This document shows, one piece after another, positions 1 through 48,006 of a stretch of 64,000 bases of DNA (position 1 is its first letter; every line of letters begins with the position of its first letter). The notes beneath the pieces were generated by a model. The model saw only the letters and a program-made list of their open reading frames with translations, was not told the origin of the DNA and searched no databases. The position numbers and the translations under genes were made by a program. Source of the DNA: Psammoneis japonica (taxonomy: Eukaryota); contig QPGO01000020.1 in assembly GCA_008632985.1 (NCBI GenBank), positions 434,001-498,000 of the forward strand, written 5' to 3'.

Positions 1-1929
1 GTCAGGAGATCATGGTTGAAGTGCTGACATGTTGTGTCCTCTTTTCCAGGTCTGCCAGGAGGAGAGCTGTGCAGTGACAGTGATGTGGAAAATGACCAAG
101 GCAAGTGTGAAAAGGTTGCTCATTGTTGTAGAATTTTTCACAATGCAAAGCATGCTGACAGGCATTGCTTGTTTCATTTGGCACAGGCATGGTGTCGTTT
201 GGCTCGGCAGAAGGATTGATCACTTTCTTGCACTTTTGAGCATGAGATCCTCACTTGTGAGATCACCAGAATTTCTTGGATGCAATGTGAGCTCTTTTGG
301 CTGGCTTTTTTGTCTCACACACAGCATGGACAATTGTCGCAGGCCTGGGCAGTGCAGTCAAAATTAAGGCCACCACTTCAATGCCGGAAGACTGGTCTCC
401 AGACACTGGATTTTATGGGGAGCAGCAGTCAAGGTAAATGTTGGTGAGAAGGGATGCAATGCAGGTCAGTTTGTTCATGCTCATCAGCTTCTTTGACTTC
501 TCTGCTGTGCCGGCGACTCTCCTCACAGTGCTTGGACCTTCAAAGCACACACTTTTTGGAGACTTCACAGTGGAAGGGGGTCCAACGGCTGCACTGCAGA
601 TTCTCTTGTTGGGCAGGTTGGTCACAGCAGACAATTCGCAAGACAGGAGACAACTCCCAGTTGCAGCTGGCCATTGAAATCACCAGCCCATGCCACTTTG
701 TGACACTGCTCTTTGACAAAGCCATTCTCATCATTGCAGTGATGATTTCCAGTGCTTGGAGCCCAGCAGAGAGAGCTGCCTGCACACTCACCAAGTCCTG
801 GATCAAACCCACCTTTCATGGTTAAATGGCACCAACTGCGCTTGTTGATTCTTGTCATTGCTCACATTCAATGTCCTTCCATGCAGCAGATGCTTCCTGG
901 ACCATTGCACAGTGTTCAATCTACATTGTCAACACACTGTGCATTGGTCCATGCATGCAAAACAATGAAAACGGGTGTCTGACAGAAGGGTTCCGGCCAG
1001 CTGTCATCATCCAATTGTTGCTGGCAGCATTTTCTGCAGTTTGACCCCAATCTCAGAGCATTGACCACTTGAAAATGCCTCTTTGCAGACAACGTGACAA
1101 TTTGAGCCATGCTCCAAATCGATTTTGTTGGAGCTGGTGTGTTCACAGGATCCAATCAACTGCCCAGGACAGTCTCCTCAAGTCACAGAGGGTGGTGTTC
1201 AAGCCATTGGTTGAAACTTTTGGATGGATTGACACAGACTTTGAGGCAATTTGATTGCCACAGATGATCATGGCAGGCAAGGATTGCCGTGCTTGCTTCT
1301 GTTTTTGGATTTAAACTTGCCAAAGGCATGGTCTTTGCATCTCATGAAGTGAGCAAGAATGGCACTGCTGCTTGGAAAGCCGTTGCCGGAAGACAGAGAC
1401 TGGGAAGATTGTTTCATCTTCTTCCCTCTGTCACCATTGCTGCAAATGAAGACAATGGCCAGAGTTCATCAGCCACACATTCTCAGTTCCCAGGGGCTCA
1501 CTCTGGTGTTGAGTTTGATGACATGTCTTGGTGTCTCCAATTGGAGAAACAGGCTTGCTGGGTGGATGGTGCACAACGCACAGGCCAGCACCACTTGAGA
1601 AAACAAAATGGAGCATGTGGTGGTGTCCCCATGTCCTCCCAGCAAATGTTTGCCAAATGCCAAGCCAGATCATCAACACCACCACAAATGCACATTGGTT
1701 TGAGTTGCTGCCTGCATGACATGCACCACCCCAGTTGCACTCAGTCTGCATTTGTTGATTGTTGAGTGGGTTTGCCCAATTATGAAGCATTTGCACTCTT
1801 GATTTGGGAAGCTGCAAGCCTTGTCTTGGGCAGCAGCAGCCCCTCATGTGATTCCTCCACAAACAAGAAAAGATGCCCAGCTGCACAAGGTGTGCAAGCA
1901 TCAGGCCCACAGATGTGGCAAAGGAGGTG

Positions 1930-3500
1930 TGCAGTTGTCTTGGGATGGCATTGGAGGACTCCAGTGGTGGGTTGCCAGGGACATGTCAACAACCATGGTT
2001 GGGGAGCAAAGGCCTTGTCTTGTGTCAATGCAGCACCTTGTCTCTCTGACATGGCTGGCTTTGGCCCAGCCAGCCAACCTGCAAGGACAAGAAAACCATC
2101 TGTGCAACAGTGCAAGTGCTCTGTTGTCTTGGGATGGCATTGGATGACTCCATTGGGTCCCAGAGGATGCAATGACAACAATGGCTGGGAAGCAAATGCC
2201 TTGTCTTGTGTCAACACAGCACCCTGTCTCTCTGACATGGCTGGCTTTGGCCCAGCCAGCCAACTTGCAAGGACAAGAAAACCATCTGTGCAACAGCGTG
2301 CAGGTGCTCTGTTGTCTTGGGTGGCTTTTGGTGACTCCATTGGATCCCAGAGGGCACAACAGCAACAACGGTTGGGAAGCAAAGGCCTTGTTTTGTGCAA
2401 ATGCAGCACCTTGTCTCTGTGACATGGCTGGGTTTGGCCGAGCCAAAAGAGCCAATTTGCAAGAAGGATGAGGGAACCATCTGTGTGACAGTGCAAGTGC
2501 TCAGTCATCTTGGGATGGCTTTTGGTGACTCTGTTGGATCCCAGAGCACACAACAACAACAGTGGTTGGGAAGCAAAGGCCTTGTCTTGTGTCAACGCAG
2601 CACCTTGTCTCTCTGACATGACTGGCTTTGGCCCAGGAGCCACCCCACACCCACAGAGACAAGAAAACCATCTGCACAACAGAGTGCAAGTGCTCAGCTG
2701 TCTTGGGATGGTGTTGGATGACTCCGTTGAGTTGCAGAGGATGCAATGGCCACAGTGGTTGGGAAGCAAAGGCCTTGTCTTGTGTCAGCACCCTGTCTCT
2801 TTGAACATGACTGGGTTTGGCCCCCCCAGCTGCTCCACCTGCAAGGACAAGAAAGCCATCTGTGTGGCAACGCAAGAGCTCTGCTGTCTTGGCATGGCCA
2901 TGGATGACTCCATTGGGCCCCAGAGATGCAACAAAAGCAATGGCTGGGAAGCAAAGGCCTTGTCTTGTGTCAATGCAGCCCTTTGTCTCTCCAACATGAC
3001 TGGGTTTGGCCCAACCACCCCACCCACAGAGACAAGAAAACCATCAGTTGTGCAACAGTGCAAGTGCTCAGTTGTCTTCGGATGGCTTTTGTTGTCTCCA
3101 TTGGATCCCAGAGGACACAACAACAACAGCGGTTGTGGGGCAAAGACCTTGTCTTGCATCAATGCAGCACCTTGTCTCTGTGACATGAGTGGGTTTGGCC
3201 CAGCCAAGAACTGATTTGCAAGAAAGACAAGGGAACCATCTGTGCGACAATGCAAGCACTCAGTTGTCTTGGGATGGGCACAATGCTCTCCATTGGGTCC
3301 CTGACAAGGAGGTGAGGACAACAACAGTTGGGAAGGAAAAGCCTGGTCTTGGGCCAAAGCAGCCCCTTTTCTTTTTGATGTGATTGGCTTGCTTTTGCCC
3401 AGCCACCCCGCCTGCAGAGACAAGAGAGCTTTCTGCACTGTGTGACAGGGCAAGTGCCCAGTTGTCTTTGGATGGCATTGGGTGCCTCCATTGTGTCCCA
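1930..3500. repeat. Tandem satellite A, ~185-195 bp unit, ~8-9 degenerate copies
   Basis: The core GCAAAGGCCTTGTCTTGTGTCAA..CAGCACC recurs at ~2006, 2192, 2379, 2573, 2766, 2951, 3140 and 3336. An isolated partial unit lies at ~5030-5110. Confidence 0.9.
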
Positions 3501-3739
3501 GGGGAGCCAACAACAGTCACTGAATGGAAATTCATGGTGTTCCCTGTCTCTTGTTTGGATGGAAAACCATGAGATGACAGAAGAGCATGACCCACCTTCT
3601 TTACAAGGTTGGTCTCCAAAGTTGTCATTTTGCTGGCACAAAGGGTGTGTTTCTGAGCTTTCTGGAGAGAGGCGATTGTCTTGTTGGCAGTGGCAAGTTT
3701 TGAACACACCAAATGGCAAAAAGGTGTTGATTGAAGTCC

Positions 3740-6700
3740 CGGAGCTGGGAGCATGCAGCACGATTGTGAAAATTTCAATCTCAACAAGAACACATCAATG
3801 TGACAAAATCAAACTTGTTGAATGCGTGTGTGACATTGATGGCTGAATGATTCATTGAGGTTGTTTCAAATCATTCAAACCATTGCATCATGACAAAAAC
3901 ATTGATTTTTAAAACAAAATTGTGTCTGAAAAAGAGATGCCAACGGGAATCAACTGACGGCCAGGCTTGCATTTTGGCTGAAAACACAAATTGTTGCTCC
4001 CTCACAAGACACAAAAAATGCAAACTCAAGCAGCATCCAACATCTGACAATGAGAGCATTGGGACAGGCAATGGCATTGCAGATGGGATGGAGCAAAATG
4101 CAGGACACAAGGTGAGAAAAACAAGTGGTGAGTGCACGGAGATCAGGTGTGCAATGCAAACAACTGACACTGGTGCACATCTTTGCACACAGACATGATC
4201 TGCACATGCAACCTGAGCTGCAGTGGAAGATGGGCAATGGGGAGGGCACAAAGGTGAGCAGAAGCAGCCCATGAGACAAGATCATGCTGAGAAACACAAG
4301 ACATGCCCATCACCTGATCATTGGCACAAAGTTTTCTCTTGTTGCAAGCAATGCTTTGGCCTGCCAAAAAGAGGGAATTCAAGACAGATCATTGCAGGAC
4401 AGCATTGTTGCCTGGTGCAAATGATTGCAGAGAGAATGAGAGTGGTTGCAAGGGAGGGCACAAGGACCAAAACATCACACTCCTCATGCAGGGACTGTGA
4501 AGGACAACAGGAACTGGTGGGATGCAGGAGAAAAACAAGAATGGGAAAGGGGAGCATTGTTCAGTGTGCAGTGTGGAAATGACAAACTGGAACATTTGCA
4601 AATCAGACAACAAGCAGCACACAGCCAGTGTGCAATCAGGTTAAAAAGACAATTGGATGTCGTCATTGTCAGAAATGAACAATGTCAGAAAGTTGTTGTG
4701 AACACATGATTGTCAAGATGGAAACAAATGCAAGTGACAAGTTTCATCAACTGTTGTTTGTGGGCAGATGTGTGAGAACAATGTCAAAACAAGTTGGTGT
4801 GAAAAATTGTCAAGAATGTGTGTGCAATGCAACTGATTTACATTGGCCATTTAATCCCAATTGGAAGCTTGAAATGACCACTAAATTCCCTTTGTCAATG
4901 GTCATTGAGGACTTGTCAAGAACTCACAATTCTGAACAAGAGAATGTGAACTCTGAACAAGAGCCACAATGTTTTCCAGACGGACATCACTGGCTTTGGC
5001 ACAGCCACCACACCCCTGCAGAGACCCCCAGTGAGCCATTTGTGTGACAGCACAAGTGCTCAGTTGTCTTGGATGGCTGCAGGAGACTCCATTGGGTGCC
5101 AGGGGATGCAACAACAATCACAGGAATTGTGTGCCAATGCATGAGAAATTTGAGATGTTCACGTGGAATGGTTGGAGAGTGGAGGTCATCAGCCATGGTG
5201 GGCAGTGGCTTCGCTGTTGATGGAAGCAGCAGCAGTGGCAACAGTTGCTGGGTTGTCAGCTGGTGCTGCTGCAGCTCTGGCCACAGGGCCTTGGTGTCTC
5301 TGGGGGCTCCTCCTGCTGCACTCTTGTGGCTGAGGTTGAGCTTGAGATCTGCCAACCCCACCTGCATCACCATGGCCAAGACGAGCACTGCGGCACCAGA
5401 ATGGTTGGCAGCACAAGGATGGCCACCACCGCCTCCACAGGGGCAGTTCACACATTTTTTAGCAGCATTGTTGCAACACACCAAAGAGAAAATGTGGTTG
5501 TGAGGGCATCAAGCAGACTGTGGAGATTGAATCCCGGAGCATTGAAAAAAGATGGTGTGCGGCAGCAAGACTGTGAAAATTTCCATCTTAACAAGAGCAC
5601 ATTGACATGACAAAAAATGAGAAATTGACACACTGCAGACACACATGAAAAATCTCAACAACTGGATGATTCAATCAAGTCATTTCAAATCATTCAAACC
5701 TTAAAAATCAAATGTGAGTGTGGAATTTTAAAACAAAATTGTTGTCACTTAAAAAGTGATGCTGACAGGAATCACACCAGGCAGACAGGCTCAACATTGC
5801 CACAAAAACACAAATCATCATTCCCTCACAAGACACAAAACACAGGACACAGGGCTCATCCAACATCATGACAATGACAGCAGCAAGGGAGGGCAACAAA
5901 GGAGCACAGAGGGGGGAAGGACAATGCGGGACACACGGTGAGAGAGAGAGAGGCAGGAACTGAGTCAACGAGTGCATGGAGCTCAGGCAACAATGCAAAC
6001 AACCAAAGCTTTGGTTGCTCTTTCCACTCAGACATGTTGGCATGCAAGGGGAGCCAGAAAGAAAGATGGCCTTGCAGGGGCCACACAAAGGCAGCAGAAA
6101 CAGTGTTTGCACCAAGCACATTCAAAACAAAAAACACACAATGCTCTCATCTGCTGTTGCACACTCTTTTCTTTTTTTTCTTTTCTTTGCAGACAACACT
6201 TTGGCAAACTAGCATGAAAAACAAAAGAGACAAGGTCGCACACAAAGGTGAGCAGAAACGCCATTTGTGCTGAGCCAAGTCCGTTCGAAACAAAACACAC
6301 ACAGCGCTCTGTTTTGTTGCAAGCTCTCTTTTCTCTTTTTTGCAGGCAACACTTTGGCAAACCACTGGCATGATGAACAAAAGTGACAAAGTCACAACAG
6401 TGTGGAACAAACAACATGGTTGTGATGAGCAAGAGCGGCTGCAAGGGATGATGCAATGAGTGAAATGTCACACCACCATGTGAAGAGGACAGAAAATGAC
6501 TGTGACACGGGAGCACTGGCAGGAGACAGGACAAAGCCAAGGAGGGAAGAGCAGGAAACAGGAAGCAAAAACATGTTCACTGCAGAAATGATGAAACACA
6601 GCAAGCACAAATCACATCACAAGAAGCACACAGCCATTGTGAGAGCATCTTGGTGAGACCATGAATGAATGTTGTCGTTGTCAGAAATGAGCAATGTCAG

Positions 6701-7010
6701 AAAGCAGTCACAACTGCACCCTTGTAAAGAACAAACAATTGCAAGTCACAAATTTCATCAATTGTCATTTCCTGCTTTGCCTCTTTGTTCAATGTGGGCA
6801 CAAACCGAGTGGTGCAAAAATCATTGTGGCTGCAATCTTGTCAAGATTGAGTGGACAATGAGACCTGCAGATCAAGCACATTTTCCTGCTTGGAATGTAA
6901 AAACAATTGTTAAATTTGCTTTGTTCACAATTGACAAGCACTTGTTAAGAACCCAGAGTTCTTGTTCAGCGCAAATGGGTTCTGAGCAAGAGCCACAACA
7001 TTTTCCAGGT
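3740..7010. repeat. Degenerate direct duplication (~3740-5000 vs ~5550-7010)
   Basis: Shared anchors in the same order: TTTCAAATCATTCAAACC (~3864/~5683), CCCTCACAAGACACAAAA (~3999/~5823), CACAAAGGTGAGCAGAA (~4247/~6241), CAAGAGCCACAA..TTTTCCAG (~4958/~6987). Confidence 0.75.
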
Positions 7011-7623
7011 GGGAGTGTGGGGGGAGCGAACAGCAGCACAACAAGAGAAACAGGAACAGGCTCCTCCTTTGTGGCCAGATCATGGCACTCTGTTGTTGTG
7101 AAACCCATCAAAGTGAAAGGAGACAGAGCAGAGCTGCTCACAGCTCAGAGGAAAGGAGAAAAGGAAGATCAGTGCAATGCCTGCCCGCCACACGGCAACA
7201 CCACCCCTTGGTGCTGCACCTGCCACTTGGCGGCTCGCGTCTTGAATAAAATAATGTCTCTCCAGCCATCCTTATGTAAATTGTGATCGTTTAACAACAG
7301 CCTAACATTTAACAAAATTTATTTAAGGGGTTTTCTTGCCTCAGACACAATGGTTGAGCACATGCTACAGCCCCCTTGCCCAGATACGAAGAGAGATCGA
7401 TAACATAGATTACAGTACCGGTACGTAGATGATGGTCGGTTCAGATGATGATGGATGGTTTAGATCTTCTCCGCTACCGCCACTCTATCTCTAGAGAGAG
7501 TGTCTCGCTATCTCTGTGCCTGGTTCTCCGAGCGATTTTTGTTCTTCTCTCTTCTGATTGTTCTATCATCAATCTTTTCATCTTTCACCTTTCTCAATTG
7601 CTGATGCAGTTCGATTCGAAAAC

Positions 7624-9888
7624 ATGAAACTGTGGAATGTGACTTCGATTTTAGCGCTTGGGGCACTCGTTCCTCTGCCACGTGCAGCCGGGCAAAAACC
7701 CAACATCGTTTTGATTGTTGCTGATGACCTCGACGCAGACGAAATTCGTGTAACTGCACAAGATACAAGCACCTGGCCAACGCACACTGGCGCTGAAAAG
7801 CTCGGACTCTGGACAAAACCGCACAACCCGAACATTCTCACCCCGCACATTGATGGATTGACAAGTGAAGGTATTCTGCTGACGAATTTTCACGTTAGTG
7901 CTACGCAATGCACCGCGAGCCGCTATGCATTCTTGACTGGACGACAGGCTGCCCGAGGCGAAGACCTTCTGAATTTATTTCCCACCGGATCACTCGTTGA
8001 ACTGGGTTGGAACCCAGGCTTGTTGCGGGAAGAAACCAACGTGGCCAAATCACTAAAGGCAGAGGGTTACCGGACCGGCATAATCGGTAAGTGGCACAAC
8101 ATCCCCAGGAAAGATAGATCCAAGCTACCCAGGTTTGTTCCTGCCGACCATAGGGCACATGCAACCTATGAACACACGGTGACTGTTCAAAAGAAACTCA
8201 AGACGCACTATGATGCACACGTTGCATACTTGAGTGACGGATACGGCTGGGATGTAATTGATAGAATGGAATGGGGTAATTCTATTCTGAATTTAAACTG
8301 GCAGTGTGAAGGCGCACTGGAGTTCATTGAAGAGAGTGCTGATCAACCCTTTTTCCTTTACGTTGGCCTTCCTGTTCCTCACGGTCAATACGCACATAGC
8401 TTCAACGATCTCACAAAGTTTGACGATCGAGTCACTTCTAAAGGGATCATCACCAACGTAGCCCAGGTGTTGCCTCCAGTATCCGACGTATATGCACGAA
8501 CGGATGCAGCCGGTGTTAGAAGAGACTATGCCATGGCAACTCGGATGGATGACTTTGTTGGTGCGATTCTTCAAAAGCTGGATGATTTGGGATTACGACA
8601 GAATACCCTCTTTATCTTCACTAGTGACCACGCAAGCCGTGGCAAAAATAGCTGCTATATTGGCGGTGCCAAAGTGCCGTTTCTGGCTCGGTGGCCACAG
8701 AAAATCCAGCCAAACACAAAGAGTAGGTCGCTCGTGGCCAGCGTTGATGTAGCCGCTACCCTTGTTGATGTTGCTGGCGGAAATGCACCCAAGGACATGC
8801 TTGTCGATGGACAAAGCTTCAAGCAAATGCTGCTTGGAAAACCCGAACCAGAAAACTGGCGAAACAGTCTCATTCTCGAAGCAGAGACCACCCGAGCTGT
8901 TGTTACTAAGAAATGGAGCTATATTGCTAATCGGGTGACACCCGAAATTGCTCAGAAAATGGCTAAACGACCGGGAGAAGTATTTTGGTCCGGAAAGGAC
9001 CATCACAACTATCAAACAGAGAACACATATCCTGGGTACTGGGATGCGGATCAACTGTATGATCTTGAAAAGGACCTTTATCAGCAGACTAACATCTTTG
9101 AAGATCCAAAGTACAAAGCAATTCTCAAGTCACTCAGAGGTGAACTGGACCTTTACATTGCGACGCTTCCGCACAGCTTTGGGGAGTTTGGAAAGGGGGT
9201 TTACGCAGATGCAGCCATCCAGCCAGAAACCCTGAAATCAGAAGGTTATGTCCAAGGAGAACTCAAATCCAATGCTTGCGGTTGGACTAAGCAATTCGGA
9301 CCACACAAACTTGAACCAGCAGCTGGAAGATTCTATCTGAGACTGCCGAAAAGGGCCAACGACGGGCTTCAAGCCATGTTGAATGCAAACCTCCCGCATG
9401 CAGACAGTTATCAAGTCGCTTTGAAGTTTACGTTTGGACGGAAACAGGGACTGCTAGTGCCAGGCATTATCGTTTCACAAATCAAAGAGACATTCAACGA
9501 TGGAACCGGTCGTCTGGGCGTCAGTTTGAGGCGAGCAGAAAGCGCGGATAAATATGAGTTGTGGCTTGCCGTGAACCCATCGTCATGGATGAAAGGACCT
9601 CCTTTCGTTCAGGATCTTTTGGGTTTTAGCGTTACTAAGTCTTCGAGCGAGAATTTGCAACTGGTGTATGAACTAGAGAGTGGATCAAACCGAAGTGATG
9701 ATTGGGTTTTGACCGGAACGTTGCGTAATCTTGATCGAGCCATAATTGTTTCAAAGCTCACCGGTCAACTGGACTCCTCGCAGGTGTTTATTACGGATGA
9801 GAACCCCGGATGCGTCGATCCAGCAAAATACCAGAATTCATCCCTGCTGGAGCGTCGTTGTGACATTAGGTTATTAAAGATAGATTGA
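7624..9888 (+). CDS. Secreted Cys-type (formylglycine-dependent, S1) sulfatase with a C-terminal extension, intronless
   Basis: ATG at 7624 followed by a signal peptide (MKLWNVTSILALGALVP). Motifs: KPNIVLIVADD, TPHIDGL..EG, active-site CTASRYAFLTGR, GYRTGIIGKWH, PFFLY..PH, NTLFIFTSDH, QLYDLEKD. Uninterrupted ORF. Confidence 0.92.
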   Translation: MKLWNVTSILALGALVPLPRAAGQKPNIVLIVADDLDADEIRVTAQDTSTWPTHTGAEKLGLWTKPHNPNILTPHIDGLTSEGILLTNFHVSATQCTASRYAFLTGRQAARGEDLLNLFPTGSLVELGWNPGLLREETNVAKSLKAEGYRTGIIGKWHNIPRKDRSKLPRFVPADHRAHATYEHTVTVQKKLKTHYDAHVAYLSDGYGWDVIDRMEWGNSILNLNWQCEGALEFIEESADQPFFLYVGLPVPHGQYAHSFNDLTKFDDRVTSKGIITNVAQVLPPVSDVYARTDAAGVRRDYAMATRMDDFVGAILQKLDDLGLRQNTLFIFTSDHASRGKNSCYIGGAKVPFLARWPQKIQPNTKSRSLVASVDVAATLVDVAGGNAPKDMLVDGQSFKQMLLGKPEPENWRNSLILEAETTRAVVTKKWSYIANRVTPEIAQKMAKRPGEVFWSGKDHHNYQTENTYPGYWDADQLYDLEKDLYQQTNIFEDPKYKAILKSLRGELDLYIATLPHSFGEFGKGVYADAAIQPETLKSEGYVQGELKSNACGWTKQFGPHKLEPAAGRFYLRLPKRANDGLQAMLNANLPHADSYQVALKFTFGRKQGLLVPGIIVSQIKETFNDGTGRLGVSLRRAESADKYELWLAVNPSSWMKGPPFVQDLLGFSVTKSSSENLQLVYELESGSNRSDDWVLTGTLRNLDRAIIVSKLTGQLDSSQVFITDENPGCVDPAKYQNSSLLERRCDIRLLKID

Positions 9889-10039
9889 ATAAGACTATAA
9901 TACCCAAAATAACCAGGCTCAGCGGTCTCTTTCGGCGACACGTCTCAAATCTGGATTGTATTGAGGATGTTGCGTGCCGGAGATGAGGAGGAGTGGAAGT
10001 GTGGTGTTCCCCTTTGTCAAAAGCGACAAGACTGGTTCA

Positions 10040-13000
10040 TGCTCTCTTTCCGCCTTTTTGCTTTTGATTTGCTCTTACTTCCGCCTTTGTCTTTTCCACT
10101 CTTCGAGCTGGGCCTTTCGAAAAAATGGTACCGGTAATACCTTCCCTTGGAATGACCCTTGGAGAAATCCTAGAACCTTTTTAGACTGACCCTTGGAGCG
10201 GTCTTGGAACCTCCTTTACCAATGTTGGATGCTGGGCGCGAAAAATAGTTGCACATACTTGCGGCTCCGTTATTATACATTTTCCAAAGCATTGAGACTC
10301 TGGGAGTCTCCAGTCTCCTACCGTAGCGAGTTCCAATGCGTATTCCATCTCCCGTCTCTATTCCAAGCCAAATTCTAGGTAAGCTCGCGATCTATCTTTT
10401 CCACCTTTGCTCTTGGATTGCTCTTATCGCCTCCTTTGCTACTGGATGATCCTTCCTCTTGACCTTTTTTGCCCTTGGATTTGCTCTTGTCGCCTCCCTT
10501 GCTTCCACACTTGGATTTGCTCCGCTCACCTCCCTTGCTGGTGCATGAATAGCAGCGTCCACCGGACTTCTCTGTGGGTGGTGTGGGGGGAGGGGTTAAA
10601 TCGCATCGAGTGGTTTAGGAGGAGTTTTAGGAGCTGATAGGGAGCGGAGTCTTAGGACTTGCCGTTTGAGAAAGAGTGATGGCGTAAGTTTTGTCTTCGC
10701 AGACGCCGCCTCTTCCTTGATGTATTCCACCAAATCTGTTATCGCACCTTTTCCTCGTAGTGACGGGCATGCACTCACCATCAGACAAGCAGATTTTGGA
10801 CGCTTCGTCGGCGTTGGTGTTGGGCTGAGTACATTCACATCAAGAGGTGGTATAGGAGCGGGAGTAACTGGGACTATCTTCACCTTGAAATGTACCGCCG
10901 AACCTATTCTCGCACCTTTTCCTCGTAGTGACCTGGATACATTCGCCTTCAGACAAGTAGCAGGCAGATTTTGCTGTGGTGGGCATTGGTGTGGGACTCC
11001 GTTGTAAATGTTGGAGTTCGCCAGGATTGGTACCGGGCGGCGTAGGAGTCGGCGTTGGATCAACATCAAGTGGCGTTGAAGTGGGAGTAGTTGCATAAGT
11101 GTTGCGCTCATATTTCCTACCTTTGCCTTGAGAGGTACCACCGCACGTGATCTCGCAGCCTTTTCCTCGTAGTGACCTGAATGCATTCGCCGCTCTCGAG
11201 GCGCAACAACCGTCCAGTTCTCTCGTTGGCATTGGTGTGTGACTTGGGGTAATAAGAGTCGGGCTTGGAGTTCCCATGGTCGGATTGGGCGTTGTAGCAG
11301 TCGGGCTTGGATTTTCAATAGTCGGATTGGGCGCTGCGACTTTTGGGCTAAAGGTTGAAACGGTCGGTCTAGGGGTGGCAACAGACGGACTCGGAGTTGT
11401 GCGGTCGTGTTAGGCTTGGAGATGAGATAGGACAGGTTAATAAATCACACTCAGTTTCCTCCACCCTGATAGAGACTACTCTCTGATACATAGGCCGCTT
11501 CGGTGGTAGACGCACAGGTTCCGTCTTCGTCCAGCAAACAACAAGCCCCACTAGGTGGAAGTGGACAGACAATATCCAACATCATCGCAAGAGGTTCCGC
11601 CCCCTTGAAATTCTCCGTCATCTCCTTCGTACCGAGTAGCACTCCTTCGCTCAAAACAGCTTCCATCTGGAAGGCAGCGTGCCCCAGGCTGTAGCCGACA
11701 TCTGGCCTTTTTACTCGTGGTCTCATCGCCGTTATACCTCAGTCAATACCGCATGTAGAAGTAGCTTCGTAAATCTGATCCCCACAACACGTAGCAACGA
11801 ATTGAGTTGAAAAAGAGTTGTGAGAATCGACGATCCATGACAGCCATGCACTACAAGAGCGAAATAACTTACGGACCCGTCTGGGAAACAGCTGGCACCG
11901 AACTGCATGTCTAGGGGAGTGGGGTGTTGTAGGAGACGTCGTCGGTCTTGATGACAGGAGATAAGGTTGCGAGACTTGTCGTCGGAGATGAGGTTATTAG
12001 GATTGGCGTTGGGTCGACTGGGCAGACAACGTTCTCATCACCGCAGCCGGTACCAGGACCTTGGAGGCACCACCAAAATCCTACAAAACAACTTTCCTTG
12101 TTTTCGGATTGCTCACGTTCGCCAGCCTCGTGAATGCAGCATGCACCAGGCTCTACATGGCAATTGGTACTTTCACAAGCGCTTCCATCTCCGTTGTACT
12201 CTCCATTGCTGAGGTTGCAATTTCCTTCATCAAATCCTTCAATGCAAACTGCGTCCGGTAAGCAGCATACCTGTGTGGACCTCTTGGTGCGTACGAGTAG
12301 GCGATAGCGTTGGAACCGCCTGCGGGGTAGGGGAAAGGGCTGGATCAACTTTAAGAAGCGTAGGTGATGAAGTAGAAGAATCCTGACAAGTCGCTCCCTC
12401 GTCGTCGCAGCTGATGCCATGACCTAGAAAGATGCCATTAAAATCTTACGTGCATCGCTTCTTGTTTCTCGTCTCTGCGCACGCGCCTGTATCGGTACAA
12501 CAAGCTCCACACTGTGCCCTGCTGTTCGCAGTGATGCAGGTGCTTCCGTTGCCATTATATTCTCCATTGCTAAGGTAGCTAGTTTCATCAACGTCGTCGG
12601 AGCAAGAACCGTAAGGGAAGCCGCCGCTACCCGTGACGTGGCGCTGGAGTTGATACATTCAATGGGGCAAACAATGGCATGAAAGTCATCATGAATCATT
12701 ATCACCGCCCGATCCTTGGAAGATACCACCGAAACCTCTCGCACACCGTCTACTATTCTTGGCCCGTTCACAAGAACCGCCACGTTTGTTTCACTGTTTG
12801 AATCAGCGCACACACTTCCGCTACCGTTGAATTCCCCGCCACTGAACTCGCAGGTGGCTTGGTCAACGTCATCAACGCAAGAACTATCAACCACACAGCA
12901 GCTAGGGCTACCTGTTTCGTCTTCCGAAGGAGTCGGACTGGTGGTAGGATCGACGAGGTCCAAGGGAGTCGGGCTGAGAGTATGATCTACGTCGAGCGCG

Positions 13001-13260
13001 GTTAGATCCAGCGAAACAGCATCGCAAGAAATCTGTCCGCAAGACGTTCCAAAATCCTTGTCACAAGCCTGAGGAAATCCTATCGCAGATTGCTGCACTC
13101 TTTGTAACCTTACAGTACCGTAGTCCCCAGGATCTACATCAGGAATGCAACAAGCTCCACTATCAAAATCAGGTGCTTGTGTAGGCTCCGGAGTAGGAGG
13201 GGGGTATGATCCGGTGTCGTGCTTCGTGTTCGTGGGACAGGTGTCATCAAAAGCATTCGG
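10040..13260 (-). pseudogene. Disrupted large extracellular protein: GACC-type Cys repeats, Thr/Pro linkers and a Lys/Gly/Ser-rich (KxxK) C-terminus
   Basis: Repeated modules across frames (SCCVVDSSC..CEFSGGEFNGSGSVC, GACCTDTGAC, VCCLPDAVC..GEYNGDGSAC, GACCIHE, GACCLLDEDGTC), PTPTP linkers, and SKGGDKSKSKGKKG / SKSGKDKGGSKSKSK at ~10050-10540. Many frameshifts and stops. Confidence 0.7.
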
Positions 13261-13826
13261 TGTTTCATAGTGGAATTATTTCTGATGAAGGCAATTCCAG
13301 AATGGAGCAGAAACTAAAATAACGCATCCATCCTAATCCAGGTCTTGATCGTGGACGGGAAGACACCAACATTCAATGGGCAAGCACGTTTCATTGATCG
13401 ACTTTCAACAACCCTAGATATCGAGACAATAGCGATATTATAATGTTCCACGTCACGTCGGCCTCAAAGTAACAATTGGAATACCACTCGACCCAGAGAA
13501 CTTCAAAGCAAAACCAAACCTTGCCCATCGCATGCGTGCTTCATAGACGAGACGGTGGAATTGATAGAGTTGATACTTATCAAGACGCGTCCACCCTGCA
13601 GAAATCGTTTGCATGTAATTTAGAGGGCGAAACGCATCTCTGGTTCAAAACAATTTTGATTACGCAAGCACGAGAGAAGGTGGACACGTCTATTTTCGCG
13701 GTGGAACAGACGAAACTGAGAAAAGGCGTCGGTGCAGCGTGCAGCAAAAGAACCTCAACATAAAGGCGATGATAGGTTTTGGCGAGCAATGTCAAAAGGG
13801 CCTGTTCACTAAGTAGTCTAGCGTCG

Positions 13827-14024
13827 TCAAAAACAATTGACTAACGACAAGCCGCTGTATGGCTGGATGAGTTCCGGCATGTAGTAACCGGTATCTTGTA
13901 TCCTGCTAGTGGCGGGGCCATCGGCAAAAGCATGATGGGAGAGGGCGAGAGTGTTGAGTGTGGCGGCCGCTGCGACCATGGCCATCCGCAATGCTCCAAT
14001 GCTGCCGCGTTGTGCGTTGCGCAT
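13827..14024 (-). CDS. Short ORF with a signal-peptide-like N-terminus, divergent from the FCP gene (possibly a first exon or fragment)
   Basis: ATG-initiated, hydrophobic MAMVAAAATLNTLALSHHAFA followed by DG. No family recognised. Confidence 0.25.
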   Translation of the reverse strand: MRNAQRGSIGALRMAMVAAAATLNTLALSHHAFADGPATSRIQDTGYYMPELIQPYSGLSLVNCF

Positions 14025-14333
14025 GATTTTTATTCGTTCTAAAAGCTGTATATCGAATCATTGAATTCAACGGAAAAAGTGATCGACAAACCAATTCTAA
14101 CCTTAATCCCTGAATATATTTAAAAAAAATCGACGAAAGAACTTCTGTCGATGACGTCAAACGATCTTGGAGTTCAACCCAGAAATTTGAAGTTGATACG
14201 ATTGAAGCAAGAATGAAGTGAAGATCTATCTCCGGGTTCACGACACGCAAGCTCGTTTGAAGCTGGTCATCAGTTCCACTTTTTGTTTACAGAACACAAT
14301 TCGGTCTCCGGTCAAGAAGAAGGAAAAGCAACC

Positions 14334-15134
14334 ATGAAATTCATCCTCGTCGCGTCTCTCGTTGCCGGCACTGCCGCATTCGCTCCCGCTGCACAGAAGC
14401 AGGGATCCACGGTCCTGAGTGCCACTGGAAAGGAAGCATTTGGTGATGCCCTCGGTGCGCAGATGCCGTTGGGATACTGGGATCCCATGGGTCTTTGTGC
14501 TGACGGTGATCAAGAAAACTTTGACCGTCTCCGGTGCGTTATAATAAGCCTTCGTCGCCTGTACCGCAATATTCCATATCCATCACTCTCTCACTCGATT
14601 GCCTCTCGTCTTTTATTTTAGATGGGTGGAACTCAAGCACGGACGTATTGCAATGCTCGCTGTTGTTGGATACCTCACGACTTTCGCTGGTGTCCGATTC
14701 CCGTAAGTAGTAATTCCAGGCGATGTACATTTCGTATTGAACTTTCACAAACGCATCTTACACGTAATCTTGCTCTTATCTGTCTTCACAGTGGAGCCGA
14801 GGACATCCCATCTGGTTTCGCCGCCTTGGACAACCTCCCCGGAATGGTCTGGGCGCAGATGATTGCCACTTGGGCCATGATGGAGGCTGCCAACCAGGAT
14901 CAGTCTATCTCCCCCTGGGGAACTGGCACTGGTGAGTCCACCGCCGAATTCAAGGGGGACTTCCGCAATGGCGCTCTCGACTTTGGATGGGACAAGCTTG
15001 ACGATGCGGCAAAGATGCGAAAGCGCGCCATTGAGCTCAACAACGGCCGTGCCGCACAAATGGGAATCCTTGGACTCATGGTCCACGAGAAGCTTGGAAA
15101 TATCTATGATATCCTTCCGTTGGCCCAGCACTAA
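14334..15134 (+). CDS. Lhcf: Fucoxanthin-chlorophyll a/c binding protein (Lhcf family), 3 exons: 14334-14533, 14622-14702, 14792-15134
   Basis: Bipartite leader MKFILVASLVAGTAAFAP. Motifs GYWDPMGL, DRLRWVELKHGRIAMLA (across intron 1), GDFRNG.LDFGWD, RAIELNNGRAAQMGILGLMVHE. GT-AG introns 14534-14621 and 14703-14791 restore the frame. Confidence 0.97.
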
Positions 15135-16439
15135 ATCATCCCGTATAGTGTAAAGCATTATAAGCTTTCATGCCAACAAACTCTTCTTGCTAGTAGTAGA
15201 AAAGCGTCTTGTCTTTCGGTGGTAAACGTGCAGGCAACAGCATCCAAGTGGCGCGTTGAAGAATCTGAATCTGTGGACCAAGTGAGCGGATCTGAAACCG
15301 CCCTACTTTTCTGCAACAAAGGCTGACTTGCAGGATGAGTTCAAGAAACTTTGAAAAAGAATCTAAAGTTGAATGATTGCCCACCTAAAGATAAAGAGAA
15401 GCTGAAAGACGAGATCGCCAAGATTAAAGAATCCATCCATCCATCCACTTGTCCTTTCCATCATTGGCACAGGCGCTTGCACAGCATCAGCAGCGAGCGC
15501 AGCACCAGTGCTCACATCATCAGCACAGGCGCTTGCACATCATCAGCAGTTGGCAGCGAGTTCAGCACAGGCTCAAGTTCAAGAAATGTGGTGACGTTGA
15601 TTGCCCATGGTTCGAGTGCTCACTGAGAAAGATCTCTTCCTGTTTGCAAGTGGCGCTGGCATGATTTGCTCCATCGCACAGACCTTTCTTCGTCTCAAGT
15701 TTGACAGACAGCTGCAAGTCAAGTGGGCGGAGTGGAAAGGGGGTGGCCCATCCACCCAAAACTCATCACCACCGACCACGTGGCACAGCTTCTGGCATTC
15801 TTCCAATGACAAAACACAATTTTTTTCTGATGGTGCCCCCAACCCATGACTCACATCATGCAAATCTCATGGTGTTGTGGTGAGAAAACACAGTGTGTCA
15901 TGCTGCAGTTGTGATGGTGCAGCAGCAAGATCACATTGGTGCGTGCATTTCTGGTGGCTTTGGCGATGTTCTTGCCTCTCCTTGTCCTGCTCACAGTGTC
16001 TTTTTTGTCTTGCTGTGCTCCAGAGCACATCAGTGGCCAGTTTCCACAAATTGACAATGTTGCAGATGGCGTGTGTGAGTGTCATTGCATGAATTTATTT
16101 GTGATGAATCATCGCCATTTGGCATGAATCACACCCATTCACCACAAGAAGGTGTGGTTAAAAACAAACAAATGTCCATGCAAACTAACAAATGTCTGGT
16201 GATGTCAACACACAGTCATTGATCCCAACAAGCAAGGTGCAACTCAACAAGTTTGCATCTCCAGACCAGTTGCTTGGCGGGATTGTGCTTTGCTTGTCAT
16301 CGCCGACCAGGTGATGACTGTGTGTGGCATTGGGTCTCATTTTCAATTTTTGCTGTCAAAATCAATCGGTTGACTTGCGTGTCAAAACAATCATTCTCCA
16401 TTGTCCCATCCGTTTGTTGCATGTTGCTGCTGCAATCAA

Positions 16440-17330
16440 TCATCAACAATTGTGAGTGCAAGCAATCACTGCCAAGTCAATCTCGACTGAACCACCGCCA
16501 AGTCCAGTTTGTAGATTTTGGCACAGATGACCTGTTGGTCATCTTCATCATCCAAGCCATCCTGTGCTTCTTTCACCACCTGTTGATCTCGCTCAGTTGT
16601 GATGGCTCTGCAGAGCTGTTCCCACCACCCAAGTCGTCTGCTTGCAACATCTTGCTTGATCTCCATGACCATTTCAACAAAGAACTTGTCAGCCTTTGGC
16701 AACCACCCTTTGCTCTTCCTTGGTGTCTTGCGCTTCCTCAGTCCCGCGCTTCCGTCTGTGTCTTTTGGCTTTGCTGCCGTGAAATGCTTGAGTGTCCTGA
16801 CAACCTTTCTCTTCTTGCTGGATGCGCCCGCATCATTTTGGATGTCAACGAGCTTTTTCGCAGCCTTGGTCAGAGCTGTGACTCATGCCGCAGTCTTTGG
16901 CTTGTCTCTGATCAACTTGACCATTGCGTCCCATCTCTCAACCAACTCCATGTTGCAATTGGACTTCAAAGTCCCATCCTTGTTTTGGCTCTTGCAGTTG
17001 GCACACCATGCATTGCAGTTGTTCTTGAGGAGCATGTGGGCAAACGCCTTGGCACATGCTGTGCCCGTTCTCTTGTTCTTGGTGGTGCACTCTTTCCAGT
17101 GTGTGTCTTCAACAATCGGGTGCAGCGTGCAGTCATGGAACACCACCTGCAAAGCCGGGTTTCCCAAGCAATCTTGGAATCTTTCTGCGGACGGCAAGAT
17201 GCAATTGTTGTCATTGCAGTGTGCACAAAGAGCTTCATTCATGGCAGGGAAAGCAAGTGACGACACTGTTGGCAACTGCAATGGCTGTTCTTGTTGCACC
17301 CTCCATTTGCACTCACTGTGGAGCTTGTCC
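16440..17330 (-). pseudogene. Decayed ORF of unknown (probably TE-associated) family
   Basis: Protein-like fragments AFAHMLLKNNCNAW..TLKSNCN and DKFFVEMVMEIKQDV..WWEQLC across frames. Cys occurs where Tyr would be plausible. Confidence 0.35.
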
Positions 17331-17899
17331 TGATGTGCCTGGTGAGCAATTCAAAACGTTTCATCTTAAATGTCTGAACATGTGTTTGCCATGATGTCCA
17401 ATGTCTCTTTACAGCCAACTCTCCAACAGCTGCTGACTGCAAGAGGCAATGGCTTCATGCTGTGACAACAGCAAAAGCAGTCTTGGACCAGAGTGCAAGT
17501 TGACAAGCAACCACATCATCAACTGTTGCCACTGCTCACCACCCCACAATGTGAAAACTCCACCGTAAAGTGACTGTGCATGCATTGTGCATTTGTTGGC
17601 GCTCTGCACCCATCTGTGGTTGTGGATTGCTGGGACAAGCAGGCGTGATGAAGCTTGCTGCAGGTTGCGACACCAGTTCTGTAATTTTTTAGGATTGAAC
17701 AGTGATTGGAGGTCTGTGGTGTTGGCAGATTCGGGTCTGGAGAAACAGGTGGTGGGAGAGTCGTGCAGAGTGTGCTTGGGGATGGAGAGAAAAAGGGTTT
17801 GCCGAGGGTGCAGACAGATGATTGAGAGGAGGAGTTGGTGATTGCAGGATGGCGAAGAAGAAAAACTTGACATGCAGAGAGGTGGCTGGAGAGGACAAA

Positions 17900-20660
17900 G
17901 CTGAAGTTGAGACTGAGGATTTGAGAGGCCCAGAGTTGGGGGGGTTGCAGTGTGATGGGAAGAGCCAAAGCAGTCTGGTGAAAGTTGTTTCCAGGCCTCA
18001 TTGGAGCAGGCAAGGAGGTTGGAGGGTGCAAGAAGTGAGTTGGTGAAGGCGGAGAAGGATGCTTGGGAATTAGACAGGGAGGATGGGCTTGACCAGGGCG
18101 GTTTGGGAGGAAGGGTTGGGATGGAGGAGGAGGCAGTGGTGGAGGTGCCAAAGAAGAAGACATGGAAATGGCACCCAATTCCTCCAAGGTGGTTGAAGGT
18201 GAAAGGGAGGGGGAAGAGTCCAGCTTGGTTGATGGCATCAATGATGTTGGAGCCATGAGCAGATGATGCAAAACTGCCAAGGAGCTTGTCCCGTGCACTG
18301 CTGAGGTGAGCCTTGCTTGACAGGTTTTCAGGGATGGGCAAACCAGGTGCAGGAGGTGGGGGAGCTGGTGGTGCGGTGATGTTGATGGCCAAGAATTGAT
18401 GGGTGGATGGGGCATTTGGTGGTGTGGAGCGGGGGTGAGTTGAGTGCCGATGTTGGCAGGGTGTTTGAGGGGGTGGTCATCTGAGATGCCGGCAGGGTTG
18501 AGGCATGCTTGTTGGCGAGAGAGGCACAGACCGCAGAGTGGCCCCATCATTTTGGTGACGGCGCAGACGGTGTCTCGGATGTGATTTGACAGATGGCCTT
18601 TGCACATTTTAGAGCAGGCAAAGGTGTGATTGCCACATGGGTCTGGGTGGACGTGGCCACATGGGCAGTCGTGTTGGAGGAGGTTAGAGGAGATGATTGG
18701 AAACAGAGCTTCCACAGGAGAAGAAGCATGAACAAGTGCAGTGGGAGCCGGTTGGAGGCATGAGCTTGGGAGAGAGAATGAAGGCACAGGCTTGCCAGTG
18801 GAGATGGCAAGGATGGAAGGGCTGGCTGCACAGAAGGACTGGCAAGGATCAGAGGGAGAGTGCTGTGCTTGTGATGACACAGATGAAAGCATTGTGAAAG
18901 ACCCCAGAGGTTTTGGTGTTTGACAGTGTGTGTCAGGGAGGTGAGGGAATGGGAGTCAAACTGAAGGAGGGTGGGAGCACAGTGGTGGAAGATGCAGCAG
19001 AGGGAAAGGGTGGAGTGTGGGTTGGACCATGAGCCAAGAGCAGTGGAGTGGCTTGAGGGAAGGTGGAAGATGGCACCGCTGCTGAGTGGGATGCTGTGTT
19101 TTGTGTGCCGCACAGATCTGATGAGGGAGGTCAAAAGAGCTGGGACGGCAATGGCAGAGATGTTGTGACAGCTGGTGCTGCCTGAGGAGACAGGTGAGCT
19201 GGTGATGAGTTTGGCAGCAGAAGGGAATGGATTGGTGTGTTTGGTTGGGTGGGCAAGAAAATGCAGGGAGTGGCCAATGATTTTGTCAGCAAAGGGAGAT
19301 GTCCATTGAAAGGGGAGTGGGAGGGCATTGGATTGCATCAGGTTGCAGCATGCATCAGCTGCCAGAAGGTGGGTGATGGAAGGGATGGAGCATTTGTGGA
19401 AGAGTGTGCTTTGTGTCTGTTTGTCGGTTGGGCGGGTGGCAAGGCGGCGAAGGTCAGTGGCAAAGGAGGTGACCTTGTCATGGAGAAAATTGAAGGCAAA
19501 GGTGGGTGAGCCGATGGGTTGGCCGAGAAAGCAGACGCCGGTGGTGATTTCAGGTTTGATGTGGGGGGTGTTGTCGCGGGGGTTGAGGAAGGCAAGGGCT
19601 TCAGAAAGAGCTGCAGCATTGGCGGGTGGGAGGCGGTTGTTGGGAGAAGTGCCGGTGATGGATGCAAGGATTTTTGTCTTGGAGGCATTGAGCTTGATGC
19701 CAAATTGGGGGCCGCAGGTGGAGAGTTGCTCAAGGAACCAAGGAAGCTGAGAAAAAGGAAAGGAAAATGTGGGTGTTGCAGACACATGAGGAAGTGGTAG
19801 ATTTGGAGCAAGGAGAAAGTCAGTGATGCAGCTCATCGTTGACAGGGTTGAACGCGTGGACCAGAACAAGGCAGGAAAAGACTGAGCTGAGGGGGCAGCC
19901 TTGAGCAAATCCTTTGGGTTGAGAAAAGGAGGACCATTGCAGGTGATGGTCATGACACCAGCAAGTGTTGGGATCTTGTCAGAGTGAGTCAAAGAAAGGC
20001 AGTGAAGTGTGGCATTCATTGGAGTTTGCAAGGGTGTCGCGGCAAGCATCACGGGAGCATTCATTGAAACAGTTGGATGGGTCAAGGAAGAGGAGAGCTT
20101 TTGTTGGTGCAGAGTCCGGTTGAAAGAAGCATTTGATGTTGGTGCAAGCAGCATTCACAAGGTGGTTAAGGCCACCTTTGATGCCAACTCCGAATTGGCC
20201 AGAGAGCAGGAGGTTGGAGGCAAAAGTGGTGGCAAGGAGGAACATGACAAGGGTGCCAATGATTCTTTGAAGGGCCATGCCAACACCAATTGGCCAGAGT
20301 TTAGAAAGGTTGGATGAATCCTTGTGCAGGGCAAGGAAGCAGTTGGGTGAAAAAGCAGGTTTGATGGATGTGGGGATGTGCAGGTTGGTTGGATTGGAGG
20401 ATGGAGGGAGGGACAACAGGAAATCTTGGAGTTCAGAGCTTGCAATGCTTGCAAATTTGGCTGATGTCTTTGGGGTTGTCGCAGCTTGCATCTGCACTGC
20501 ACAAAATGCAACAGTGAAATTCCGTTGGTTTCCTGCCACAATTTCCTCTGTTTTGAAATGCATGGAAGGGACATTTTGAAGATGTCTAACAGCTTGCAGG
20601 GCTTGGAATTGATCCAAAGCAGGATGGCATTGACTCATTGCTTGGCACACCATTTTCACA
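17900..20660 (-). mobile_element. Decayed non-LTR retrotransposon (CRE/RLE-type): RT, Zn-knuckle and restriction-like endonuclease
   Basis: RT motifs LHK..LWPIGVGMALQRI (~20290), QFGVGIKGG, LLFLDPSNCFN, MSCITD at the YxDD position (~19816-19836), GIKLNASKT, GVCFLGQPIGS. C-terminal CPCG..DPCGNHTFAC, HIRD and HPANI (RPADI-like). Frameshifts and stops. Confidence 0.82.
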
Positions 20661-38790: not shown

Positions 38791-38921
38791 CTCAAATCAC
38801 ATCGCAAGGCCCAACGAACGAACAGCGAACACGAACACGGCCCATTTGCTCACAGCTCACAACACACGACACAAGCACGACACACAAGACAAACAACATC
38901 CTGCAGCGCGACCAGCGACAC

Positions 38922-47990: not shown

Positions 47991-48006
47991 TGGAGCAAAG
48001 CGAAAG

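Follow-up and report, generated by a model that had tools for sequence, protein, structure and literature searches.

Context-dependent loss of TpA in repeat blocks of a 64-kb window, with TTAA as the main surviving context and a separate loss of CpG

The closest described system is found in Bigelowiella natans. Mettrop et al. (preprint, bioRxiv 10.64898/2026.01.13.699255) followed mutation-accumulation lines of this species and found two integrated viral regions that mutate about 1000-fold faster; of the 231 changes recorded there, 230 were A>G or T>C, and all of these fell at TpA. As described in the same preprint, the genome contains 124 clusters of 1-kb windows that are poor in TpA and rich in CpA and TpG, the TpA-poor genes are enriched for transposon domains (DDE endonuclease, reverse transcriptase), and a large target region derived from a nucleocytoplasmic large DNA virus (NCLDV) is transcriptionally silent; an ADAT2-like adenine deaminase was hypothesised. 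The present study concerns 64 kb of genomic DNA (contig QPGO01000020.1, positions 434,001 to 498,000; this whole stretch is called the window), where four blocks of repeats have lost nearly all TpA and most CpG, and where TTAA is the main context in which TpA survives.

The enzymes TadA/ADAT2-ADAT3 and ADAR convert A to inosine, which is read as G, and their natural substrates are RNA loops or double-stranded RNA (PMC10661471). In Table 1 of that paper, TadA/ADAT2 is assigned the site 5'-ACG, at position 34 of the tRNA, and "DNA?" stands there as a potential substrate; the preference of ADAR is given as 5'-UAG in double-stranded RNA, with the 5' neighbour ranked U>A>C>G. In diatoms, methylation is described as occurring mainly at CpG and as lying in islands of repeats, up to 30 kb long, between gene-rich stretches that are unmethylated (PMC5124317).

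All statistics are based on this single window, which consists of 27,465 bp of depleted DNA and 36,535 bp of normal, gene-bearing DNA. The limits of the blocks were determined by a two-state segmentation on the TA+CG density, used alongside per-kb dinucleotide ratios. The layout, with observed/expected ratios given as o/e, is as follows.

1 to 7185: depleted block 1; 24 TpA (o/e 0.05), 57 CpG (o/e 0.14), TpG/CpA o/e 1.8–1.9; TTAA with the TA at 365, 823, 1312, 3910, 4642, 4852, 5589, 5702, 5729, 5750, 6911 and 6946.
1932 to 3515 (block 1): tandem array with a period of 186 bp, about 8 copies.
15692 to 23496: depleted block 2; 22 TpA (o/e 0.04), 102 CpG (o/e 0.22), 5 TTAA.
42649 to 48000: depleted block 3; 12 TpA (o/e 0.03), 37 CpG (o/e 0.12), 5 TTAA.
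55183 to 62305: depleted block 4; 20 TpA (o/e 0.04), 71 CpG (o/e 0.17), 7 TTAA.
55734 to 58102 (block 4): tandem array with a period of 186 bp and a 374-bp higher order, 14 copies aligned.
7186 to 15691, 23497 to 42648, 48001 to 55182 and 62306 to 64000: normal DNA, the complement of the four blocks.

The o/e values in the four blocks are 0.03–0.05 for TpA, 0.12–0.22 for CpG and 1.65–1.98 for TpG and CpA, and those in the normal DNA are 0.59–0.62 for TpA and 0.84–1.08 for CpG. The G+C content is equal, with 0.48–0.49 in the blocks and 0.47–0.50 in the normal DNA. The mass balance per kb, with the strands collapsed, is −37.7 TA, −47.0 CG and +81.9 CA/TG in the blocks, where the block/normal ratio is 0.07 for TA and 1.56 for CA/TG. 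The remaining dinucleotides lie at 0.86–1.14 of normal, with AA/TT, AT and AC/GT at 0.86–1.04 (AA/TT at 1.04). The deficit of TA and CG is thus matched by the gain of CA/TG, which indicates that both self-complementary pyrimidine-purine steps were turned into TG/CA via transitions. The strands are symmetrical in this respect, as the blocks contain 3190 TG and 3062 CA. The initial annotation of this DNA had argued that the pattern differs from general GC-biased drift, and the composition bears this out, since only TA and CG fall and the G+C content is equal.

Most edges of the blocks are sharp, and those at 7185, 23496, 48000 and 55183 are defined within 50–100 bp. The edges at 15692 (spread over about 15300–15700) and 62305 are gradual. 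No patch of normal density was found inside any block, either in the 1-kb profile or in the two-state segmentation. Positions 18001–20000 of block 2 show an extreme skew of G over C (+0.49 to +0.50), with a CpG o/e of 0.27–0.37 and a TpA o/e of 0.02–0.06, and contain long stop-free frames on the minus strand with no family match.

The full listing of block 1 reproduces exactly the count made by hand in the initial annotation: 12 of the 24 TpA lie in TTAA, 9 lie in half-contexts (GTAA 3, TTAT 2, TTAC 2, CTAA 1, TTAG 1), and 3 lie in neither (GTAG, CTAC and CTAG, 1 each). TTAA is kept in the other blocks as well, as had been stated, and accounts for 5 of 22, 5 of 12 and 7 of 20 TpA in blocks 2, 3 and 4, respectively. 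Over all blocks, 29 of 78 TpA (37%) lie in TTAA, whereas the share in the normal DNA is 3.8% (56 of 1479), which corresponds to an odds ratio of 15 (Fisher P=5e-19).

Such an excess could arise with TTAA unprotected, either as a compositional heritage of junctions between T-runs and A-runs or by regeneration from TTGA and TCAA. These two tetramers are plentiful in the blocks (423 together), and some TTAA must come back from them through C>T and G>A changes of the ordinary kind. However, a first-order Markov model of the junctions predicts 7.7 TTAA across the blocks, where 29 are observed (P=1e-10), so that the junction-frequency explanation, which had been named in advance as one that could overturn the TTAA pattern, fails. 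With a proxy that uses the flanking bases of every T-purine and pyrimidine-A step, 8.5 TTAA are expected (P=1e-9), and none of 1000 dinucleotide-preserving shuffles of all blocks attained 29 (maximum 16). For block 1 alone, the corresponding values are 12 observed and 2.4 expected (P=9e-7), with 0 of 1000 shuffles attaining 12 (maximum 8); block 2 alone is only marginal (5 observed, 2.2 expected, P=0.06). When 5 non-independent sites were dropped (2 shared between paralogs and 3 in tandem-array copies), 26 TTAA remained among 73 TpA (P=2.5e-9). After normalisation to supply, TTAA/(TTGA+TCAA) is 0.069, compared with 0.000–0.026 in the nine other classes. At the TTAA column of the block 4 array, 3 of 13 copies keep TA (6 have TG and 4 have CA), and among the other 27 listed mixed columns of the arrays TA occurs in 1, in a single copy. 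The heritage or regeneration account is thereby largely refuted, and we regard it as highly improbable.

Within the normal DNA, no TpA context is as strongly under-represented as TTAA (56 observed, 132 expected from the Markov model); therefore, the retention of TTAA is a property of the blocks rather than of the whole genome. TTAA is slowed rather than immune, as seen in the array column described above and in two paralog pairs that have TTAA in one copy and TCAA in the other. The idea that the TTAA sites are target-site duplications of transposons was dropped without a test of its own; the neighbouring younger insertions of normal density that it predicts are not visible in the profile or the segmentation.

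The dependence of the loss on neighbouring bases was expressed as retention, which is the density in the blocks relative to that in the normal DNA, for the ten NTAN classes (N, any base).

TTAA: 0.69.
CTAA/TTAG: 0.20.
CTAG: 0.09.
GTAA/TTAC: 0.08.
ATAA/TTAT: 0.04.
CTAC/GTAG: 0.03.
ATAG/CTAT: 0.016.
GTAC: 0.012.
ATAC/GTAT: 0, against an expectation of about 174.
ATAT: 0, against an expectation of about 80.

Loss of TpA depends on its context, and a uniform loss over the NTAN classes is rejected (likelihood-ratio test, LRT, chi2=149.9, 3 degrees of freedom, df, P=3e-32). The comparison of NTAN counts inside and outside the blocks, which the initial annotation had proposed as a check and which was made here within the window, therefore gives a non-uniform depletion, with retention ranging from 0.69 to 0. 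A model with additive and independent half-site hazards, which has four parameters, fits the ten classes (deviance 2.58, df 6, P=0.86). When ordered by the base 5' of TA, the fitted hazards come to 3.1 for A, 2.3 for G, 1.3 for C and 0.2 for T; the equivalent reading is by the base 3' of TA on the other strand, where the order is T, C, G and A. The fit of this model to all ten classes agrees with the earlier claim that the process acts on each strand separately. On this model, TTAA is the main survivor because T-A-A is read on both strands, and its protection on both strands as a palindrome, which had also been proposed, holds in the sense of a slowed loss in the best-retained class.

The same order is found when the blocks are taken one by one. 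T-A-A is the best retained in 4 of 4 blocks (0.15–0.26 of normal), and T-A-T, at 0.006–0.025, ranks last in three blocks; in block 3, T-A-C alone is retained less well. The base at +2 also has an effect (LRT chi2=46.1, df 3, P=5e-10), where A protects by about 1 hazard unit, that is, by about another e-fold, whatever the base at +1 (as in TAAA and TAGA); an excess of TACA may be partly secondary to CpG decay. Retention of YYTARR (Y, pyrimidine; R, purine) reaches 0.46, and RRTAYY, RRTAYR and RRTARY together have 0 sites in the blocks, compared with 547 in the normal DNA, or about 411 expected when scaled to block length. The suggestion that the process disfavours an adjacent T/A run is thus supported by the strong protection from A at +1, to which A at +2 adds.

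The retention values are compatible with an influence of the base 3' of the mutated A (+1) or of the base two positions 5' of it (−2), and these two readings were separated using the asymmetry between the products TG and CA. Over the six asymmetric classes, the product asymmetry correlates with the +1 model at r=+0.93 and with the −2 model at r=−0.93. The excess derived from GTAA is +132 for GTGA and +231 for GCAA, where the +1 model predicts 113 and 228, respectively, and that derived from ATAA is +79 for ATGA and +247 for ACAA, where it predicts 130 and 255. With the tandem arrays left aside, ATAA, GTAA and CTAC, which have the largest predicted asymmetry, show the predicted sign in all 12 comparisons (each class in each block). 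Single cases agree with +1 as well: TTAG in other copies stands against TTGG here, GTAG against GCAG, and a Tyr codon in the context t-TAC is now t-TGC in the hAT transposase relic described below. The +1 reading, in which 5'-T-A-N becomes T-G-N with N ranked T>C>G>>A, is likely to be correct.

Several points weigh against these conclusions or limit their weight. The whole analysis depends on the 78 TpA that are left in the 27.5 kb of the blocks. In addition, the hazard fit is built on the assumption that the repeats once had the composition of the gene-bearing DNA in the same window. Some of the survivors may be back-mutations from the abundant TG and CA, in which case the hazards are effective values. 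An equilibrium model, which uses the blocks only, needs no assumption on ancestral composition and compares TA with the TG+CA supply by context, gives the same rank order with rates of 37:13:4.6:1 for T, C, G and A at +1, and fits less well (deviance 8.9, df 6, P=0.18). The product asymmetries of CTAA, ATAC and ATAG differ in sign between blocks. A GTAA column of the tandem arrays contradicts the +1 rule, having 9 GTGA, 1 GCAA and 1 GTAA in copies that are non-independent; because of this non-independence, the arrays were rejected as a decisive test of direction. Finally, the footprint would be identical if the lesion lay on the T of R-T-A.

The last point leads to an alternative in which the T of 5'-R-T-A-3' is modified, for example to 5-hydroxymethyluracil by a dioxygenase of the TET/JBP type, or is mispaired with G, giving T>C. 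By sequence alone, A>G on one strand is inseparable from T>C on the other, and the rule can be put just as compactly as N1-T-A, with N1 in the order A>G>C>T. In dinoflagellates, hydroxymethyluracil preferentially replaces T at TpA. However, the 2-oxoglutarate and Fe(II)-dependent (2OG-Fe(II)) oxygenase open reading frame (ORF) of the window, at 37099–37887, matches the 2OG-FeII_Oxy_3 family, which we take to be prolyl-hydroxylase-like and not of the TET/JBP type. In addition, the only experimental precedent, that of B. natans, is read by the authors of the preprint as deamination of A, also without proof. A lesion on thymine is rather unlikely, and the T-A-N rule is retained below.

The blocks consist of repeats that were mutated in place. 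The word depth in sequencing run X1 is approximately 195–2700 in all block bins and about 60 over unique genes, so that the blocks lie at 3- to 45-fold the unique depth; block 1 has values of 237–2689 in 11 bins from 1 to 7337. Mutation is confined to these repeats, as the high depth, the hAT relic and the satellites are in the blocks, and the gene-bearing DNA has a TA o/e of 0.59–0.62. Contigs built from k-mers of X1 match the blocks and their edges with 0–3 differences per listed piece, including contigs that span edges at 6927–10500 (1 difference) and 12926–16185 (2 differences). X1 is possibly the assembly's own data, and thus supports the base calls without being independent support.

The copy variants in X1, tallied at 156 places, comprise 42 C>T, 38 A>G, 28 G>A, 22 T>C and 26 transversions, and the contigs show adjacent CA<->TG doublets at 2992/3, 3639/40, 16441/2, 16690/1 and 19326/7. 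Five paralogous segment pairs in the window, which together align over about 1390 columns, differ by 175 transitions and 120 transversions, and 34 adjacent CA<->TG double changes are among these differences. Such doublets indicate that the copies inherited a single TA or CG step and then changed it on opposite strands. The tandem arrays show the same mixture. In the array at 1932–3515, TG and CA are mixed in 13 of 13 columns with mixed pyrimidine-purine steps, where CG is also kept in 3, and over both arrays 24 of the 28 listed mixed columns combine TG and CA. The two arrays have an equal period of 186 bp and no detectable similarity to each other.

Self-comparison of the window was performed in purine/pyrimidine coding, which is undisturbed by transitions. 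It gave 44 matches (43 direct, 1 inverted), of which only 2 short ones (34 and 37 letters) connect a block with normal DNA, and among them no ancestral, unmutated copy of a block repeat was found. The same comparison shows direct repeats of approximately 290 bp at 48904–49193 and 51464–51755, which are 97% alike in this coding and flank an ORF with an endonuclease/exonuclease/phosphatase domain (50327–51280, plus strand). This stretch (48904–51755) has the look of a mobile element, sits in normal DNA without depletion of TA or CG, and may be a young or exempt element.

The clearest case of a damaged coding sequence lies in block 4.

58688 to 60133, minus strand: hAT-family transposase relic, C-terminal half, with a match to Pfam Dimer_Tnp_hAT.

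The Dimer_Tnp_hAT match has E=1.1e-7 and 32 bits, where the cut-off is 21.4, and 105 representative proteins match the relic at E<=0.001, the best at 1.3e-44. Its frame is open only because the stop codons TAA and TAG were lost. It has no Tyr in 481 residues, compared with 2.4% in 19 aligned relatives, and both of the two conserved Tyr columns are now Cys (TGC). Four of the eight conserved Arg columns are kept, 1 has turned into Val, and the other 3 read His (CAC), Cys (TGC) or Gln (CAA); the three changes of CGN to CAC, TGC or CAA are those that CpG decay would give. Among 20 long ORFs from the depleted blocks, only the hAT match passed in the Pfam scan. SBF and zf-BED were below the threshold, the latter being a weak hint at 44620–45255 on the minus strand in block 3 (E=0.048).

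The differences between copies, together with the change of Tyr to Cys in the hAT relic, show that real mutation occurred after insertion. The opposite view, that modified bases were systematically miscalled as TG or CA in sequencing or assembly, draws on the fact that TA and CG are both classic sites of base modification. A deterministic miscall cannot, however, yield CA and TG at one site among paralogous copies; the X1 contigs reproduce the blocks and their edges with the few differences noted above, subject to their possible identity with the assembly's own data; and the size pattern of the records (657,387 records, 140.7 Mb) suggests short reads. An artefact of this kind is scarcely credible.

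The same blocks are depleted of CpG, which was absent from the reading in the initial annotation. The survival of CpG depends only mildly on context, from 0.39 in GCGC as the best to 0.06 in TCGA as the worst, and the hazards attached to the flanking base are 1.34 for T, 1.10 for A, 0.57 for C and 0.58 for G. At 16–20 kb, CpG is less depleted (o/e 0.27–0.43) while TpA is at 0.02–0.08. Since the flank rule of CpG differs from that of TpA and the two losses are uncoupled at 16–20 kb, two processes on the same chromatin are indicated. The CpG half would most simply be explained by deamination of 5-methylcytosine in methylated repeats.

A combination of two processes with the T-A-N rule is, on balance, the best explanation of these results. 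The blocks would be islands of old high-copy repeats, namely the hAT relic, the 186-bp satellites and unclassified repeats, on which two separate region-restricted transition processes would have acted after insertion, both ending in TpG/CpA. The first would convert CpG, with a mild effect of A/T versus G/C neighbours. The second would convert TpA by targeting the A of 5'-T-A-N-3' on each strand independently, at a rate set by the 3' neighbour in the order T>C>G>>A, with further protection by A at +2. TTAA would thus escape on both strands, and R-T-A-Y, as in ATAT and ATAC, would be wiped out.

The dependence on context, the independence of the strands, the direction of the changes and their confinement to repeats are seen in the data, and from this footprint we infer the chemical lesion, the enzyme and the targeting signal. 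The agent may be a nuclear DNA adenine deaminase, of the kind proposed for B. natans, which would convert A to inosine, read as G, and would be directed to silent or methylated repeat chromatin; this assignment by analogy could go either way. No deaminase of the cytidine deaminase (CDA) fold, with the motifs HxE and PCxxC, was found among the recognised ORFs of the window. A more specific proposal is somewhat doubtful, namely a defence that can be called "anti-RIP", after the repeat-induced point mutation (RIP) of fungi, in which a TadA/ADAT2 derivative would deaminate adenine in 5'-T-A-Y DNA on CpG-methylated repeats and would operate, beyond the chlorarachniophyte B. natans, in at least a second, unrelated algal lineage (an ochrophyte).

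The loss of TpA might also proceed with no dedicated enzyme, through spontaneous damage or biased replication or repair in compact, methylated, late-replicating repeats, where the flank rule would reflect base stacking, with protection for an A that stacks on a purine to its 3' side and exposure for an A flanked by pyrimidines. The protected contexts do have purines 3' of A on both strands (TAAA and TAGA; YYTARR 0.46 and RRTAYY 0), as expected from a propensity to stack or flip, and for copies as old as the paralogs, judged by their transversions, a moderate rate over a long time would be sufficient. However, the gene-bearing DNA behaves in the opposite way, as TTAA is its rarest class relative to expectation, the edges of the blocks are sharp, and a rough estimate puts the TA-specific hazard at tens of times that of other transitions in the same copies. 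Moreover, the process in B. natans is switched on in only some lines and by about 1000-fold, according to the preprint, which argues for a regulated activity. An origin without an enzyme is unlikely.

Changes of A to G with a preference for 5' U on both strands would also result from ADAR-like hyperediting of double-stranded RNA of the repeats, fixed in DNA by reverse transcription (5'-UAG for ADAR1 and ADAR2; PMC10661471). Here, AA/TT is not depleted (ratio 1.04), which means that the 5' T is obligatory, and G at +1, the hot spot of ADAR, is the second most protected base (hazard 1.3, compared with 3.1 for T). The targets include the hAT DNA transposon and satellites, which have no RNA intermediate, and copies differ at the same sites, as in-place mutation of DNA would give. 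The requirement of ADAR for the 5' neighbour is far less strict than that seen here, and ADARs are, to our knowledge, confined to animals. Hyperediting is therefore a very unlikely origin.

The normal DNA between the blocks carries the following genes.

7558 to 9888, plus strand: sulfatase ORF, intron-less, 55–59% identical to bacterial sulfatases of the Verrucomicrobia type.
14217 to 15134, plus strand: light-harvesting (LHCX-like) gene with two GT..AG introns of 88–89 nt.
32251 to 33422, plus strand: GH53 galactanase.
37099 to 37887: 2OG-Fe(II) oxygenase ORF with a match to 2OG-FeII_Oxy_3.

The closest named relatives of the light-harvesting protein are from diatoms (Thalassiosira species) and the raphidophyte Heterosigma, at 82% identity, and none is above 87%. 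These matches suggest that the host is an ochrophyte alga and not B. natans. A second, RNA-like run, X2, contains the introns of this gene as spliced joints at very high depth. Over the 20 kb compared, X2 covers parts of 9.3–15.3 kb and almost none of blocks 1 and 2, where lack of cover does not mean silence. The sulfatase and GH53 genes look like bacterial genes acquired by the alga, judging from their sequences. Further genes in the normal DNA are VPS13-like, amino-acid transporter and GNAT genes, where protein matches of the VPS13 exon are at 42% identity or less. Across the oxygenase gene, at 37001–38000, the TpA o/e is 0.35 and CpG is normal (1.00); this TA-poor stretch without CpG loss is probably a coding-sequence effect.

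The signature described here, with T>C>G>>A at +1, protection by A at +2, strand independence and a resistant TTAA, can be used as an assay read-out for candidate deaminases and can be directly checked against published de novo mutations. To find regions of this kind in further genomes, the share of TTAA among the remaining TpA offers a sharper criterion. If the host is indeed an ochrophyte, the process would be older or more often reinvented than one lineage suggests, and the TpA process would share its islands with the decay of CpG. A deaminase that acts in nature on the adenine of genomic DNA, if it exists, would be of interest for base editing, as present adenine base editors are laboratory-evolved variants of TadA. 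If an anticodon-loop-like motif with a refractory T-A-A marks a derivative of TadA/ADAT2, that derivative would be a natural DNA adenine editor.

In comparison with known systems, the CpG half of the pattern resembles diatom methylomes (PMC5124317), as described there, in that islands measuring from a few kb up to tens of kb are interspersed with gene-rich DNA. It also resembles methylation-driven decay, in which the CpG deficit goes with a gain of TpG/CpA and survival is best in G+C-rich flanks. Such decay accounts for the CpG half only, and no report linking it to a loss of TpA was found in the literature searched.

The likeness to fungal RIP, as described in PMC2621366, lies in the restriction to repeats, the exclusive use of transitions, the dinucleotide context, the action on both strands, the sharp limits and the destruction of transposon genes. 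The chemistry is the opposite, since RIP converts CpA to TpA and enriches TpA, whereas here TpA is at 0.07 and CA/TG at 1.56 of normal. Independently mutated duplicate copies, which are a hallmark of RIP, are also seen here in the 34 paralog doublets and the mixed TG/CA columns of the arrays. The machinery of RIP consists of RID/DIM-2 cytosine methyltransferase-like proteins and acts premeiotically, and we know of no adenine activity in it.

With regard to the adenine deaminases, U33 is conserved in the tRNA anticodon loop and precedes A34. The site of TadA/ADAT2, U33-A34-C35, is thus T-A-C-like and nearer to the T-A-Y optimum found here than the UAG of ADAR. The optimum of the footprint is T-A-T, followed by T-A-C and T-A-G, with T-A-A far behind, and is compatible with the T-A-C of TadA/ADAT2 without being identical to it.

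The closest system remains that of B. natans, which shares, as far as the preprint describes it, the transitions of TpA to TpG/CpA, the mobile, foreign or repeat targets and the sparing of host genes. The rate was measured directly in B. natans, whereas here the end-state footprint alone is seen. The loss of TpA is more complete in this window (o/e 0.03–0.05) than in the NCLDV region of B. natans, for which the preprint gives a Rho of 0.45, and a separate loss of CpG is present in addition. The terms TTAA, CpG, flanking, context and trinucleotide have 0 occurrences in the main text of the preprint, which therefore describes neither the rule for +1 and +2 nor a joint depletion of CpG, and in the literature searched no report of the same phenomenon in diatoms or other algae was found besides it. 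Judging from the sequence, the present window probably represents a second algal lineage with TpA hypermutation. The kind of process is thus already known from one 2026 preprint, and the flanking signature and the coupling with CpG decay are new here.

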